Shown piece by piece: positions 2,058 to 53,446 of a DNA stretch of 64,000 nt. This DNA comes from an uncultured virus (IMG/VR IMGVR_UViG_3300029705_002947) (taxonomy: Duplodnaviria > Heunggongvirae > Uroviricota > Caudoviricetes). The translations under genes were made by a program, and so were the position numbers. Where the stretch lies: IMG/VR virus record IMGVR_UViG_3300029705_002947. One strand, 5' to 3'. A model generated the notes under the pieces. The model had not been told where the DNA came from, did no database searches, and worked only from the letters and a program-made list of their open reading frames with translations. Each line of letters starts with the position of its first letter. Position 1 is the stretch's first letter.

Positions 2058-5000
2058 ATGGCTAATATAGCTATATATAAATTTAATGACGGTATAGATA
2101 CTTTACCTTTATTTGAATCAAGTTATACGTATAGTTATACAGACGAATCTAATGGTGATGGAACTATTACTAGAACAATAACATCTGATACAATACCAAC
2201 TAGTATAAGTTTCAAAGATTTAGAAGGATTAGTTTCAGTAAGCTATATAAATACAGAAAGTATAAGTAATTTTAGTTATTTATTTCAAAACTGTGTAAAC
2301 TTAACTTCGGTAGATTTATATAATATAAGTTCATCTCAAGCAACAGATATGAAATATATGTTTGCTGGTTGTACTGGGTTAATGTCTATAGACCTAGGAG
2401 GATTAAATACAGGAAATGTACTAGATATGTCTGGTATGTTTATGGGATGTTCTAATATATTTGCGATAGATATAAAAGGCTTAAATACTAGTAAAGTAAC
2501 TAGTATGAATAGTATGTTCCAAAACTGTGAAAATTTAAGTAGTTTAGATATGACAGGAATGAACATATCTGCATTAAGTAATATAGGATTTATGTTTGCT
2601 GGTTGTACTAATTTAATGAGTGTTTTATTTACTGGGTTAAATTTAAATAATAGTATGACTATGACAGACATATTTAAAGATTGTCTAGTATTAAACGTAG
2701 TTAATATGGATAATTGTAATATAGATGATATTAATATGATGATAAATTATTTACCAGAAAGAGAAGCTGGTAGTAACGCTAAATTAAAAGTTAATAATAG
2801 TGACATAAGTGGAATTAACACAACTAATTTAACAGCTAAAAACTGGAATTTAGCAAGTTATGAAATATTCTTAAGATATGTATTTGACAAAAGTATTTAT
2901 GCTAATTTAATACCTGAATTCAATAGTGGATTCACTGGATACGTTGTAATAGACGAGGCTGTAAATGGTAATATGGTTACTAGAGCTATAGGACACGAGA
3001 ATTTAAAACCATCTATGATCAGATTTGGTAATCCTAATGGTAATGGTCAAAATCAATCTGCAAAACAACTTGCTATAATTAAAATATTATATCTAGACGG
3101 TAGTAATCTTACAACATGTGATCTTATGTTCCATCAGTGTCAGAATATTAATTATATCGAACCTTTTATTATAACTAATAAATGTACGAATACGCATGGA
3201 ATGCTTTCTGGTTGTAATAAATTAACTTCAATAGATATAAGCAATTGGGATACTAGTAATGTAACTAATATGAGTTATATGTTCCGTGAATTATTACAAA
3301 TGACTTCATTGGATGTAAGTAATTTAAACACTAGTAAAGTAACTGATATGACTGGTATGTTTAGTTATTGTACAAATGCAGAAATTATAAATATGAACGG
3401 ATGGAACACAGCAGCTCTTACAACTATGCGTACTATGTTTGATAACTGTAGAAAATTAAAAACTATAGTTGGTTTAGGTGATTTAAACACTAGTAAAGTA
3501 ACTGATATGTATGAAATGTTTAGTTATTGTGAGCAATTACCATCATTAGATTTATCTAACTGGGATACTAGTAATGTTACTAGTATGAGTAAAATGTTTA
3601 GAAATTGTCGTTCTTTAGTAAATATATCACTTACACCATCTAAGTTTAATACTAGTAAAGTAACTGATATGGGTGGTATGTTTGACAGTTGTTGGAAATT
3701 AACATCAATTGATATAAGTGGATTTAATACTAGCAATGTAACTACTATGTATAACATGTTCTGCGATTGTCGTGCATTAACTTCATTAAACTTAAGTTCA
3801 TTTAATACTAGTAAAGTAACTAATATGAAATATATGTTCAACGGTTCTGATGATTCTTATATGAATTTAGAAACTATAACATTTGGTCCAAACTGGAGTG
3901 TTGCTAATGTAACTGATATGGATTGTATGTTTGGAGATTGCTATTATTTAACTAATTTAGATGTAAGTAATTGGAATACTAGTAAAGTAACTAATATGAA
4001 CTGTCTGTTTAGAAATTGTCGTTCGTTAACTTCATTAGATGTAAGTAATTGGAATACTAATAACGTAACTGTTATGAGTAGTGTATTCTATAATTGTTAT
4101 AATTTAACTTCATTAGATTTAAGTAATTGGAATACTAGTAAAGTAACTACTATGTATTGTATGTTCTGTGGTTGTAAAAAATTAACTTCATTATCTATCA
4201 ATCATTTGGATGTTAGTAAAGTAACGAATATAGACAATTTGATCAATGACTGTTATGGTTTAACTTCAATAGACTTGAGTAATTGGGATACTAGTAGTGT
4301 AGTTAGTATGCGTTATGTATTTAATGCTACAGATGGTACATTTATGAATCTACAAGAAATAAAACTAGGACCTGGTTGGAGTAAAAATAACACTACTGAC
4401 ATGTACTGTATGTTTAGTGATAACGATAAATTAACAAAAATTGAAGGCTTACAATACTTAAATACTAGTAAAGTAAAAGATATGTCTTGTATGTTTATTA
4501 GATGTAAAAAAATAGAATCACTTGATATAAGTAATTTTGATACGAGTAGTGTAACTGATATGTATCATATGTTTGAGGAATGTTATAAAGTTAAAGAATT
4601 AGATGTGAGTAATTGGAATACTAGCAATCTTAAAAAAGCTTATAATTTATTTAGTAAATGTCATTCATTAACTTCAATAGATGTAAGTAATTGGAATACT
4701 AGTAATGTAACTAGAATGGATGGTATATTCCAATATTGCCAATCATTAACTTCGTTAGATTTAAGTAACTGGAGATTAATTGATAATGTAAATATTTCTA
4801 ATATGATTGACTATTGTACTAATTTAAAAACTTTAAATATAAATAATATAAAAATTACGACTGCAAATATAACTTCTAATACATTGGCAGATGATGTATA
4901 CTTAGAAAAAATATATACAAATGACGTAAACACGATACAATTTTTATTAAATACTAATGATATAAAAAATAGAACTGAAATGTCAACAGGTGTATTAGTA

Positions 5001-50059: not shown

Positions 50060-50809
50060 CTAATCATTAATTTCAACTTTATAATTATACATAGCCTCAT
50101 AAAGATTGTTTGGTATAATATCTCTATATTCATCTGCAACTTTTTGAATATATTTTTCTTTAAACATTTTATAAGCCTCAAAAGCTTTTATTGTCGTATC
50201 ATATCTACCTAATTGGACTCTACCATCGAGTGTATTACATGATACATATATACTTTTACCATGATAATAACAACCGATAGGTAAATTACCTCGACGCATA
50301 TCATTTTTTGTAAATAAACTATTTATCCTTTGTGGTACGAATGTACACGTTTCAGATGAATATTGTAAATTACCTTTAATTAAAATATCTTTATCCAAAT
50401 GCATAATTTCGCCTGGTATTTCATAATAATTTTCATCGAACCAACTTGCGAAATTTTGAAAACAAAGCCAATCATCAGATACATAACAATTGATATATGA
50501 AGGATTTGATGTTGCAGTTACTTTATCATAACAACGAGCTATCATATGTTTCCATACATTATAACTATGAGGATGGGTTTTATGTGAATACTGTCCTTCA
50601 CCTATATACCCTACTCCATATACAGATTTGTCATAAACATTTTTAACTTCTCCTTTTATAAATGCTTGATAATTTGTATAAGTTTGATATTTGTATTCAT
50701 CTTGAAATTCAACTAACACTTTTCTATTATTAATATATTCTATTATTTTCATGACAGTTCCCTTCTTATTAAAAGACTCTTCTCCTAAATGATCTACTGA
50801 TTTTCTCAT
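50060..50809 (-). CDS. Free-standing HNH-type homing endonuclease
   Basis: W..MI.RCY, W.CFQNF..W, LDKDIL..GN..YS.ETC.FVP..IN, C-terminal LG.Y.T...AF..Y. Confidence 0.75.
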   Translation of the reverse strand: MRKSVDHLGEESFNKKGTVMKIIEYINNRKVLVEFQDEYKYQTYTNYQAFIKGEVKNVYDKSVYGVGYIGEGQYSHKTHPHSYNVWKHMIARCYDKVTATSNPSYINCYVSDDWLCFQNFASWFDENYYEIPGEIMHLDKDILIKGNLQYSSETCTFVPQRINSLFTKNDMRRGNLPIGCYYHGKSIYVSCNTLDGRVQLGRYDTTIKAFEAYKMFKEKYIQKVADEYRDIIPNNLYEAMYNYKVEIND

Positions 50810-50850: not shown

Positions 50851-51414
50851 CTAATTTAATTTTTCATAAGCCATTTTATCAACTATTTGATTACCTTCGA
50901 ATATCATTTTAAATGTTTCTAAATCTATATCAAAATATTTGTCTATGAATTTCTTATGCATATGAAGTATTTTACTTTCGTTATTATGTGAATTAATATG
51001 GCATATATAAACTGGAATAAACAATTGTAATGATAATATATTTATATATGCAGATTTAATTAATTCTTGGTTCTTTACTTCTCCTGTTGTACTCATAAGA
51101 GTTTCGTCAGTTGCTTTCTTTAACCAACCTTTCATCCATTCATTTAACGATTTTTCGCATAATTGTGAATCAGTTATAATTACGACATTATTGCAATCAT
51201 GTATCTCAACCATGTTTTCTAATACATATTTAGTTCCTTTATATATAGCGTACATTTCAGCATAATTATTCGTATGGTTTCTTAACAAGATAGATTCTTT
51301 ATGAACTATTTTACCATTTACATATATAACATATGCAGCAGCTGCATCAAATCCTTTAGAATTATTAGCACTTATAGAACTGCCATCAGTTACAACATAA
51401 ATAGAATTATTCAT
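50851..51414 (-). CDS. rnhA: Ribonuclease HI
   Basis: TDGS, TNNYAE, TDS, VKNQEL, H..SH, GN..VD..A; SD sets the start at 51414. Confidence 0.9.
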   Translation of the reverse strand: MNNSIYVVTDGSSISANNSKGFDAAAAYVIYVNGKIVHKESILLRNHTNNYAEMYAIYKGTKYVLENMVEIHDCNNVVIITDSQLCEKSLNEWMKGWLKKATDETLMSTTGEVKNQELIKSAYINILSLQLFIPVYICHINSHNNESKILHMHKKFIDKYFDIDLETFKMIFEGNQIVDKMAYEKLN

Positions 51415-51445
51415 ATTAAATACCTCCTTATATTTATTCACTATT

Positions 51446-51477
51446 ATAATATATAATCAAAATAACACCAATTTACA
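51446..51477 (-). promoter_or_regulatory. Early-type promoter motif
   Basis: TGTAAA-N18-TATATTAT. Confidence 0.7.
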
Positions 51478-51490
51478 CAAACATATCTAT

Positions 51491-51580
51491 AAGTAGTCAT
51501 AGGACTACTCTAAGATCTCTCTGGGATCATTAGAATTTTACCTCCAATAAAATTTGATAAAATATATTTTTTATTTAATT
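51491..51580 (+). ncRNA. Candidate sRNA with an anti-SD (CCUCC) loop
   Basis: AACATATCTATA motif at 51480-51491 with no + ORF downstream; three contiguous hairpins; 3' end uncertain. Confidence 0.5.
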
Positions 51581-51593
51581 AAACAGTACGGAA

Positions 51594-51640
51594 AAAATAT
51601 GTGTATATAGTGATATGAATTCACTATATACACATATTTT
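51594..51640. terminator. Long bidirectional terminator
   Basis: AAAATATGTGTATATAGTGA...TCACTATATACACATATTTT. Confidence 0.8.
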
Positions 51641-51867
51641 ATTTAGTTAATAATGCTATCTTACCTTATCCACTATTGATAAGTAACACTATTAACAAAT
51701 ACCGCTCACTCCTACATCAGTATACGGTACACCACACTATTAGCCAAAAGTGTGATTAGTTGAGAATAAACCTACTAAGCCTCGGTGGCGAGATGCAATC
51801 TAGCGAGCATATATATAATGTAGTATATACACATACTCCCGTACCCTCCACTTTTATTCTTCTCCCT
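51594..51867 (-). ncRNA. Candidate ~270-nt structured ncRNA
   Basis: AACAATTATGTA motif at 51878-51867, locally raised GC, several G-U-containing stems, ends in a terminator. Confidence 0.6.
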
Positions 51868-51896
51868 ACATAATTGTTATGTTGGATAAAATTTCA

Positions 51897-52397
51897 TTAA
51901 CGTTTATGTCTCTTTTTATTTTTAGTTTCATTTCTCATATCGTCTCTTTTTGAAATTCTATGTGTTTTTTTCGAAACATAATTATTCATTTTTGCAGCTG
52001 CATTAAATTCATTATTATTTTCACTCATCGTTTTTAATGAAATATTTTTAACACTTTCTATTAGGTCATAACCTAAGTACATTAAATCTGATTTAATATC
52101 TGGCATAACATCTAGTGTTAAATAGTTCATTATTTCATCTCTATATTCATTGTCATAATCTAACAGTAATATATTTATACCCTCTTCTGATATAAAAGTG
52201 TCATCCTCAATAGTCATTAGATAACATCCATTTATATACTCTTCTTCATCTATTTGTAATATCCTAAGAACGTTAACTAATTCATACCATTTATAGCCAA
52301 GGTCATCGATAAACACAGGAGAATCTACTTCAAATAAACAATAAAGTTCATTTAATAGAATTTCCAATGTACAGTATTTATTATTTAAATTGTACAT
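51897..52397 (-). CDS. Bro-N-like DNA-binding protein
   Basis: W+....V..IL and FISEEG+..L+ pattern; likely start MYNL at 52397. Confidence 0.5.
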   Translation of the reverse strand: MYNLNNKYCTLEILLNELYCLFEVDSPVFIDDLGYKWYELVNVLRILQIDEEEYINGCYLMTIEDDTFISEEGINILLLDYDNEYRDEIMNYLTLDVMPDIKSDLMYLGYDLIESVKNISLKTMSENNNEFNAAAKMNNYVSKKTHRISKRDDMRNETKNKKRHKR

Positions 52398-52707
52398 TAT
52401 ATAAGCACCCCTCTTTCTCGATTTTATCTTTAACAAATTCAACGAACTCATCAGTTATTTCAAAAATGAAATGTTGTCTACCACGTTTAAAAATAAATCT
52501 CTCCCTAAAATATAATGCGTATAATTCTCTTTCCCTAGCTCTAAATTTTATATTAACACAGAGTTTTCCTAATTTAACAGTAGTATTAGGATTTTCTTCT
52601 ATTGCCAATATACCCATAGATTTTAACATATTGGTTACACTTTCAGTATCAGCGTTCACTAGTTCACCTATCATATTATACGGATAATATCTTATTTCGT
52701 TTTCCAT
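52381..52707 (-). CDS. Hypothetical protein
   Basis: AAGGAG SD; AACAAATATTTA motif at 52730-52741. Confidence 0.7.
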   Translation of the reverse strand: MENEIRYYPYNMIGELVNADTESVTNMLKSMGILAIEENPNTTVKLGKLCVNIKFRARERELYALYFRERFIFKRGRQHFIFEITDEFVEFVKDKIEKEGCLYNVQFK

Positions 52708-52750: not shown

Positions 52751-53446
52751 TTATTTTTTTGGATCTGTAACAATCTTCTTCATAAATTCTTCCTGTCCTA
52801 TTAAAGATAAAGGTCTGAAACCATCTACATCAATATATGTATATTTAGTTTCCAATAGAGAATAATCTTGACATTCTTTAGAGAATTTTACTATATTCTT
52901 TAACTTGTCTTTCATATCTTGAGGCATATAAGGTTCATATTCTTTATAGAATAATAACCAATCTCCTCTAACATTTTGAACAGGTATAAATAACATTCCC
53001 TCATGTACTAACTTATGAACTGTTGTTGATAAAGGTATTAACCCAACTCTACATTGATAATGTAATTTCATAACTTCTTCACATATTTCAAATAGATTAA
53101 TTTCCCCATAATAATCCATGTGTTTAAGAAGAACCGTCATAGTTATATCATATAATGTAAATGGCGAATGATGAATTTCTACTTTAAACTTACTATAATG
53201 ATCCATCTTAGAATTTCCAAAGAAACTACATTTAGTCATATCAATATAATCTTTAAGAAACTTAATGTAATCTTTATACTCTAAACTAGAACGTATCATT
53301 CTTTCACATGTCTTAACAGTTTTAATCTTATCTTTCTCAGAAGCTATATTATATATCATATCAACATCAGGGATCTTAGAAATATCAACTTCCTCTATAA
53401 GTCTATCATTCTTATAACTTTCTATTTGTTTTGGTACCAATCTCAT
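52751..53446 (-). CDS. HNH-like protein, paralogue of 40937-41611
   Basis: ERMIRSS.EY..YI, VEIHHSPFTLYD, LSTTVHKLVH; TACA-N6-TA variant at 53462-53473. Confidence 0.6.
   Translation of the reverse strand: MRLVPKQIESYKNDRLIEEVDISKIPDVDMIYNIASEKDKIKTVKTCERMIRSSLEYKDYIKFLKDYIDMTKCSFFGNSKMDHYSKFKVEIHHSPFTLYDITMTVLLKHMDYYGEINLFEICEEVMKLHYQCRVGLIPLSTTVHKLVHEGMLFIPVQNVRGDWLLFYKEYEPYMPQDMKDKLKNIVKFSKECQDYSLLETKYTYIDVDGFRPLSLIGQEEFMKKIVTDPKK

Follow-up and report, generated by a model that had tools for sequence, protein, structure and literature searches.

The stretch of DNA analyzed here, a window of 64,000 nucleotides (nt) from an uncultured virus (IMG/VR IMGVR_UViG_3300029705_002947), is part of a 202.6-kb IMG/VR virus record. 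On its minus strand, a gap of 455 nt lies between an upstream open reading frame (ORF) of 184 amino acids (aa) and a downstream RNase H gene. The subject of this work is an RNA of about 276 nt encoded in this gap, whose gene occurs as a single copy within the 202.6-kb record. That it is a real, selected, structured RNA is, in our judgment, very probable. It has a stand-alone gene, in which a helix named P1 closes a three-way junction carrying hairpins A and B2; the word CAACUA, a variable hairpin C, hairpins P5 and D, and a terminator follow. Its features are given below, with positions in the window and nt numbers counted along the RNA.

51592-51867, minus strand: structured non-coding RNA, about 276 nt, delimited by its fold, covariation, and promoter and terminator bounds
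51867-51878, minus strand: predicted AR9-type late promoter AACA-N6-TA, its last A (51867) being the predicted start, followed by GGGAG
51853-51862, minus strand: 5' arm of P1 (nt 6-15), pairing with 51762-51770
51762-51770, minus strand: 3' arm of P1 (nt 98-106), continuing into the conserved CAACUA (51762-51757)
51805-51838, minus strand: hairpin A (nt 30-63), 13 base pairs (bp) with three G-U pairs, loop word CUACAU at 51823-51818
51780-51793, minus strand: hairpin B2 (nt 75-88), loop CCAC at 51788-51785, from covariation
51731-51756, minus strand: hairpin C (nt 112-137), of variable length, with the stem AUCACACU/AGUGUGGU
51700-51729, minus strand: hairpin P5 (nt 139-168), loop word AUGUAG at 51717-51712, from covariation and RNAalifold
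51646-51696, minus strand: hairpin D (nt 172-222), conserved loop AAUAGUGGAUAA with GUGG at 51673-51670, from covariation and RNAalifold
51594-51640, both strands: 20-bp hairpin followed by a U run, a two-way terminator common to a convergent small RNA, from a terminator scan and compensatory changes

Relatives of the locus were recovered by means of marker proteins and DNA patterns. The marker-protein scan, carried out with a seven-sequence alignment, returned 80 metagenome, 79 viral, and 2 genome loci. Four distinct sequences of the RNA are available: that of the window, to which the sibling record L003 is identical across the 451 nt compared; L029, a metagenome contig that is 87% identical over the element; L004, which together with L005 makes up two near-identical records with identical nhmmer and covariance model scores; and L026, a metagenome contig alignable by blastn only in part. 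With the window and L029 as its basis, a covariance model recovered the entire RNA of L026 (E = 6.6e-20) and, in two halves, that of L004 (E = 5e-11 and 0.15). Across these lineages, the length of the RNA ranges from 276 to 388 nt.

The RNA has a narrow distribution. It is present at every locus that has a marker identity of at least 86% and reaches the position, and the two loci next in identity (L027 and L028, 85% and 73%) are contigs of 1.4-1.5 kb that stop short of it and are uninformative. In the roughly 160 loci with a marker identity of at most 54%, no homologue of the RNA was found by nhmmer, and the covariance model gave no credible match in 84 and 76 loci. Marginal matches of this model in L065 (E = 1e-4), L162, L139, and L173 were set aside; the one in L065, the sole one inspected, is a terminator-like hairpin, and in four whole records of relatives (G001-G004) and AR9 the model likewise gave a terminator-like match only. 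A blastn search against 50,697 phage records gave no match. Scanning for the DNA pattern returned only the three known records among viral contigs, along with chance matches (L007-L009, L011, and L013), and nothing among genome contigs.

When folded, the 285 nt of the minus strand between 51594 and 51878 reach -93.3 kcal/mol (z = -6.9, with none of 200 shuffles as good), and the plus strand of the same stretch reaches only z = -3.4. Many of the pairs are G-U on the minus strand only, as an earlier reading made from the sequence alone (the sequence-only reading) had pointed out, and changes from A-U to G-U are tolerated. Compensatory changes were found in about 34 columns overall. We aligned the four sequences by hand and by coordinates, with the CCAC loop, CAACUA, and the 5' end, itself conserved, as anchors for the 5' helices. 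In the hand alignment, P1 forms standard pairs in 35 of 39 cells, with compensatory changes in 6 of its 11 columns. All cells are paired in hairpin A (42/42, 7 of 13 columns compensatory), hairpin B2 (20/20, 3 of 5), hairpin C (26/26, 7 of 8), the P5 stem (24/24, 5 of 6), and the tip of hairpin D (24/24, 3 of 6). Sliding the 3' partners by 1-3 nt brought pairing down to 10-65%; for P1, 88% paired compares with 36-52% when slid.

The 3' half of the RNA was also recovered without manual intervention. Run on a plain MAFFT alignment, RNAalifold found P5, hairpin D, and the terminator unaided, with 47 pairs, 14 of them changed on both sides. In this alignment 92.9% of cells are paired, and none of 500 shuffles reached any of five measures; slid controls gave 26-56% paired cells and 3-5 pairs changed on both sides. 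An unpaired linker separates hairpin D from the terminator. An inner extension of P5, UACU/AGUG, was rejected, as it has three broken cells and clashes with the loop contact described below.

Closely related sequences vary in the same manner. By our own count from the alignment, the window and L029 differ at roughly 36 sites, and the 79 modelled pairs include 8 in which both sides have changed in a compensatory way, 4 in which a change on one side leaves the pair intact, and 1 that is broken; three of the compensatory pairs in hairpin C are found between these two sequences alone. Strain variants in the sequencing runs at 51810, 51811, and 51813 turn G-U into G-C or U-A into U-G, so that the pairing of hairpin A is kept, and a base inserted at 51785 in some runs makes the B2 loop longer, as in L029. 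Helix lengths differ as well: hairpin A measures 13 bp in half of the four lineages and 8 bp in the rest, and hairpin C, 26 nt in the window, is an AU-rich arm of about 120 nt in L004 and L005 (L004 2144-2265). Two further observations were made in the runs. In run X15, which may be an RNA run, the loose end of a contig beyond 51644 adds a fifth version of hairpin D; its loop word is unchanged, its 3' arm differs, and it is closest to L026 (30 letters). In DNA run X8, a single contig has a joint skipping from 51639 to 51785, with 21 letters on the shorter side.

The sequence-only reading had listed a series of complementary segments, all of which are present on the minus strand and in the place it had assigned to them. 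The relatives support the 13-bp stem with three G-U pairs, here hairpin A, the AUCACACU/AGUGUGGU stem, here hairpin C, and the long stem, here hairpin D. Three other helices of that reading are not supported as pairs. A closing helix GGUAC/GUACC shares four nt with the 5' arm of the covarying P5, and nothing equivalent occurs at the corresponding sites of L004 and L026, where the best alternatives lie elsewhere and may be due to chance. GCUAGAU/AUCUCGC competes with the covarying B2, and UUAGU/ACUAA has no complementary partner in L004 or L026.

Two contacts between hairpin loops complete the fold. The first joins the loops of hairpins A and P5 by 6 bp, which read CUACAU/AUGUAG in the window and L029, CUGCAU/GUGCAG in L004, and CUGCAA/UUGCAG in L026. 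All 24 cells are paired (100%, compared with 16-50% when slid), and 2 of the 6 columns are compensatory. The second joins the loops of hairpins B2 and D by 4-5 bp (CCAC/GUGG in the window, CCACA/UGUGG in L029 and L004, and CCACG/CGUGG in L026), with pairs in all 19 cells and compensation in 1 of 5 columns; in three of the four RNAs, the D loop is the sole site with which the B2 word can pair. Of the two pseudoknots suggested by the sequence-only reading, CUACAU/AUGUAG is thus a true loop-loop contact, and the other, AGAAUAAA/UUUAUUCU, is instead the nested closing helix P1. The contact between B2 and D had escaped that reading.

The ends of the gene are set by a promoter and a terminator. The consensus of AR9 late promoters is AACA-(6N)-TA/G, the last base being the start of transcription (PMC5312081). 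At the 5' end of the RNA, AACA-N6-TA followed by (G/U)GGAG is retained in all four lineages, and it is on account of this conserved consensus that we place the start at 51867. The phage appears to use this motif at large: in windows from -150 to -10 upstream of 130 ORFs in its own genome, AACA-N6-TA has 59 sense and 16 antisense occurrences, corresponding to 3.2 and 0.9 per kb, compared with a genome mean of 0.66. The RNA thus carries AACA-(6N)-TA/G directly at its 5' end in a phage that uses the motif, as a late transcription unit with a predicted promoter would. At the other end, a terminator scan found a terminator-like site (51594-51640) with a 20-bp stem, a loop of 7, and a T run. A promoter and a terminator had both been anticipated for this RNA. 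Both are present, the predicted promoter being of the AR9 late type and not of the sigma-70 type; no sigma-70-like site was listed at this position. The boundaries initially drawn, 51594 to 51878, are revised accordingly to a promoter at 51878-51867 and an RNA at 51867-51592.

The RNA did not match any catalogued family. Rfam 15 gave no match at gathering score in the whole 64-kb window, a negative that covers RF00044, RF03087, RF02032, and the known riboswitch aptamer families. Over 51400-52000 at E <=10, none of these was among the 16 matches listed, which are of microRNA type and pestivirus only and lie on the AT-rich terminator. ARAGORN found no tRNA or tmRNA in the window, and neither it nor the Rfam models detected a tRNA, tmRNA, RNase P, SRP, 6S, or known ribozyme. 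Literature searches found no published description of the RNA. By sequence and predicted structure, the RNA is a new family. An uncatalogued structured RNA on the minus strand of a jumbo phage, to be checked against Rfam and for covariation, is what the sequence-only reading had proposed; z = -6.9, covariation across all four lineages, and the lack of an Rfam or ARAGORN match bear this out.

A coding function is likewise not supported, as no ORF of at least 15 aa is common to the four lineages. The 19-codon ORF inside the RNA, which might have been the sole conserved part, is missing from L004 and L026, and in L029 its carboxyl terminus is different. Nor was an antiterminator found: the best pairing of the 5' arm of the terminator with upstream RNA reaches -9 to -11 kcal/mol, a level also attained by shuffled arms (a fraction of 0.07-0.31 of them scored as low or lower), compared with -23 to -25 kcal/mol for the terminator itself. 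One candidate antiterminator, formed through the 3' arm of hairpin A, was rejected; though suggestive in the window, where a 12-nt word is shared, it is lost in L029 and L026 and is not significant.

Transcription was examined in sequencing runs. Of the 24 listed, 20 contain all or part of the stretch, and 3 are recorded as RNA. Four runs were compared across 51200-52100 (901 nt). In metatranscriptome X16, one contig of 224 nt (51636-51858) at low depth lies wholly inside the RNA, as does one contig of 156 nt (51689-51844) in metatranscriptome X17, which is from a different study. The flanking genes are without contigs in these two runs, and such gaps in cover carry no weight; DNA run X8 has contigs over the whole of 51200-52100. 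Two RNA libraries with contigs confined to the RNA give a weak hint that it is expressed, in line with the transcript that had been predicted.

The surroundings of the RNA contain a second RNA gene and several conserved protein-coding genes.

51491-51648, plus strand: putative convergent small RNA, about 155 nt, with its own AACA-N6-TA (51480-51491), two hairpins, the single-stranded word ACCUCCAA, and the common terminator
51897-52451, minus strand, upstream of the RNA: ORF of 184 aa, 53% identical to a weakly Bro-N-like ORF of L004
50851-51414, minus strand, downstream of the RNA: RNase H gene (Pfam RNase_H, E = 1.8e-13)
52751-53446: conserved neighbour, PHROG 12252, 41% identical to g242 of AR9/PBS1

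The small RNA, antisense to the space upstream of RNase H, is predicted to carry an anti-Shine-Dalgarno (anti-SD) word. Its promoter motif is kept in all four lineages, and three one-sided changes in its hairpins give G-U pairs on the plus strand that would be A-C on the minus strand, which together make the convergent anti-SD small RNA look real. The vicinity of RNase H and of this small RNA, which had been noted before, is thereby supported. Read from sequence, the locus is a pair of predicted late RNA genes that converge on one two-way terminator.

Conservation exceeds 90% across the 130 nt that separate the terminator from RNase H. The conserved downstream block was considered as an early promoter, since it agrees with the AR9 early consensus at 12 of 13 positions, and rejected, since the motif that recurs in the phage differs (five copies, with a longer box); the exact word of the block has no second copy within the window. 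The recurring box itself is about 25 nt long (aggtWaatttYc, then AATTATATATTAT), is found on the plus strand of the phage's own genome record (G000) at 4642, 68037, 84708, 90271, and 184693, and is one mismatch away from the AR9 early-promoter consensus; it is probably the early promoter of the phage. On the minus strand, the conserved block at 51442-51560 also reads as GGAGGU, 9 bases, AUG, and 2-6 codons in three of the four lineages. As a gene this mini-ORF was discarded, as L004 has no start codon there, and the GGAGGU reading is probably merely the complement of the anti-SD word of the small RNA.

RNase H is the next gene after the RNA in the window and in L029, and in L004 an extra ORF intervenes. 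Further on, between RNase H and a dCMP deaminase fusion gene, lies an HNH endonuclease-like ORF (50060-50809, minus strand; PHROG 953, E = 2e-54). On the other side, the 3' end of the 184-aa ORF (51897-51970, minus strand) encodes a strongly basic, K/R-rich tail that is also present in L029 and L026; its product could be a nucleic-acid-binding partner. The PHROG 12252 neighbour has relatives in jumbo phages of Staphylococcus, Listeria, and Yersinia with uracil DNA, and the phage genome encodes a beta-prime-like RNA polymerase ORF. The g242-like marker and this polymerase ORF mark the carrier, from its gene content, as an uncultured AR9/PBS1-like jumbo phage. The DNA runs containing the stretch are animal faeces and bovine gut metagenomes.

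As to its role, we propose that the non-virion RNA polymerase of the phage would transcribe the RNA from the AR9-type late promoter, and that the transcript would be released at the terminator as a discrete RNA. The folded particle might then, late in infection, bind a protein of the phage or the host and serve as a scaffold or a decoy, which is a guess. The sequence-only reading had offered a ribozyme, a decoy, an antitoxin mimic, and a morphogenesis RNA as candidate roles. Since internal contacts already take up the conserved loop words, and since coding, attenuation, and known families are excluded, an action based on shape is favored. We therefore hold, tentatively and with considerable reserve, to a shape-specific protein-binding RNA rather than a base-pairing regulator or a leader. 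A different use of the same architecture would be self-assembly, in which one or both loop contacts form between molecules and build a ring or a larger particle late in infection, in the manner of the phi29 packaging RNA or of the ROOL and GOLLD cages. The two complementary and covarying pairs of hairpin loops and the late-type promoter agree with this, and hairpin A, with 13 bp in some lineages and 8 bp in others, is not obviously compatible with one fixed contact within the molecule. ROOL offers a precedent, as a contact that was first read as tertiary from covariation is described as having later proved quaternary, between chains (PMC12286853); ROOL and GOLLD are described there as phage-borne RNAs with kissing loops. 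However, all four partners are found on one molecule, in an order that permits internal folding, pRNA, ROOL, and GOLLD are absent from the Rfam matches listed even at E <=10, and the RNA is far smaller than ROOL or GOLLD. We regard self-assembly through at least one contact as fairly unlikely. The more specific version, with both contacts intermolecular and a defined ring or cage that scaffolds, encloses, or is packaged with phage components, is marginally less likely still. If this version were true, the RNA would be a miniature, independently evolved counterpart of pRNA and ROOL in AR9-like jumbo phages.

The order of a compact, aptamer-like fold with loop contacts, a terminator, and a gene on the same strand, which is RNase H in the window and L029, could also be that of a cis-acting sensor, whose fold would decide between a stop at the terminator and read-through into the conserved leader and the RNase H gene. 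Yet no alternative pairing competes with the terminator, a perfect 20-bp stem set apart from hairpin D by the unpaired linker, the next gene varies by lineage, the stretch between terminator and gene holds the convergent small RNA gene on the opposite strand, and no riboswitch family was matched; such a sensor seems improbable. Regulation by base pairing, through unpaired words (the 5' AGGGAG, CAACUA, and the 3' part of the P5 loop) or through a duplex with the convergent small RNA, is quite improbable. By construction, the two convergent RNAs complement each other over about 47 nt in their 3' hairpins, and UGGAGG in the window and L029 complements CCUCCA of the small RNA, but this word is lost in L026 and only partly kept in L004, the best-conserved loops are occupied by internal contacts, and a multi-helix fold of 276 nt exceeds the needs of an RNA that pairs by a seed. 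Several small ribozymes share a general plan in which loop-loop contacts brace a three-way junction. This resemblance, together with conserved words in the junction strands such as UAGAU and CAACUA, would fit a self-cleaving or otherwise catalytic RNA of a new class, which we consider very improbable: no Rfam ribozyme was among the matches listed at E <=10, the hammerhead-like CUGAUG of the window is not kept in L029, and nothing points to a cleavage site. Finally, the locus might not be an RNA gene at all, and instead act as DNA (an origin, a packaging site, or a protein-binding site) or be a neutral spacer that happens to fold. The plus strand, too, folds better than its shuffles, mostly by way of the palindromic terminator. 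Given the G-U pairs confined to the minus strand, the many compensatory columns, the covarying long-range loop contacts, the bounds set by promoter and terminator, and the contigs of RNA libraries confined to the unit, this is scarcely credible.

Several points weigh against our interpretation of a structured, protein-binding RNA. For the 5' half, RNAalifold found 0 pairs when given a plain MAFFT alignment, since the diverged 5' domains (L004) are wrongly placed by MAFFT, and the 5' helices therefore depend on the hand alignment; when the covariance model itself aligns L026, it flags several pairs in P1 and hairpin A as non-standard. With four lineages only, statistics of the R-scape type are out of reach. 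Among the loop contacts, that between B2 and D rests on one covarying column, and the A-loop word alternatively pairs with the D loop in L029 and L004, which leaves some ambiguity; covariation itself cannot tell contacts within a molecule from contacts between molecules. The transcription start is a position predicted from the motif. The contigs of X16 and X17, with depths of 3 and 5.5, are blind to strand, ends, and level. Lastly, the proposed mechanism was arrived at by exclusion and is a guess.

To our knowledge, RNAs with complex folds and covariation-proven tertiary contacts are rare, and each class has so far been found to do something specific. At 276 nt, the RNA is small enough for chemical probing, crystallography, and cryo-EM, its two clean loop contacts can be broken and restored by design, and the promoter type of its transcription unit is already understood from AR9. 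If the RNA binds host or phage proteins, or if it self-assembles, it would represent an unexplored layer of jumbo-phage biology.

Among known phages, AR9 offers a comparable setting. Its gap between g242 and g243 (KU878088, about 207909-208468; L021, 5703-6262) comprises roughly 490-560 nt without an annotated gene. Like the locus described here, it is flanked by a phrog_12252-type gene and RNase H, has AACA-N6-TA at its start, and folds with z = -5.95. Neither nhmmer nor the covariance model found any similarity between this gap and the RNA, and for g243 no start site is given in the AR9 table of late promoters; as a homologue the gap was rejected, and it is at most a positional analogue. No corresponding gap was found in the other AR9-like isolates BpSp, S6, LPJP1, and phiR1-37.

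Among RNAs of known type, the purine and lysine riboswitch aptamers are braced by a loop-loop contact. The RNA shares with such aptamers helices that radiate from a junction, distal kissing loops, and a terminator that follows. It differs from them in having two separate loop contacts, neither a family match nor an antiterminator, its own promoter, and a downstream space occupied by a convergent RNA gene. ROOL (RF03087) and GOLLD (RF02032) resemble it in being ornate and borne by phages or prophages, with kissing loops whose covariation is described as having been noticed ahead of their role (PMC12286853). Many members of GOLLD are reported to exceed 800 nt (PMC12286853), and both families are much longer and often found near tRNA islands, whereas the RNA here measures 276-388 nt, has no tRNA in the window, and has no Rfam match. 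With the pRNA of the phi29 family (RF00044), it has in common that it is a stand-alone folded RNA encoded by a phage, with a three-way junction and complementary hairpin loops. The loops of pRNA covary among relatives and pair between molecules. They thereby form a ring; the complementary, covarying loops of the RNA described here may pair within or between molecules. Other differences are that RF00044 gave no match even at E <=10 among the 16 matches listed, that there are two loop pairs instead of one, that the RNA is about 276-388 nt long and preceded by a predicted AR9-type late promoter, and that its carrier is a 200-kb AR9-like phage instead of a small phi29-like one. A three-way junction and self-assembly are described for pRNA (PMC3753930, PMC5340915). 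In kind, the RNA of this jumbo phage belongs with pRNA, ROOL, and GOLLD, as a phage-borne, loop-braced RNA.

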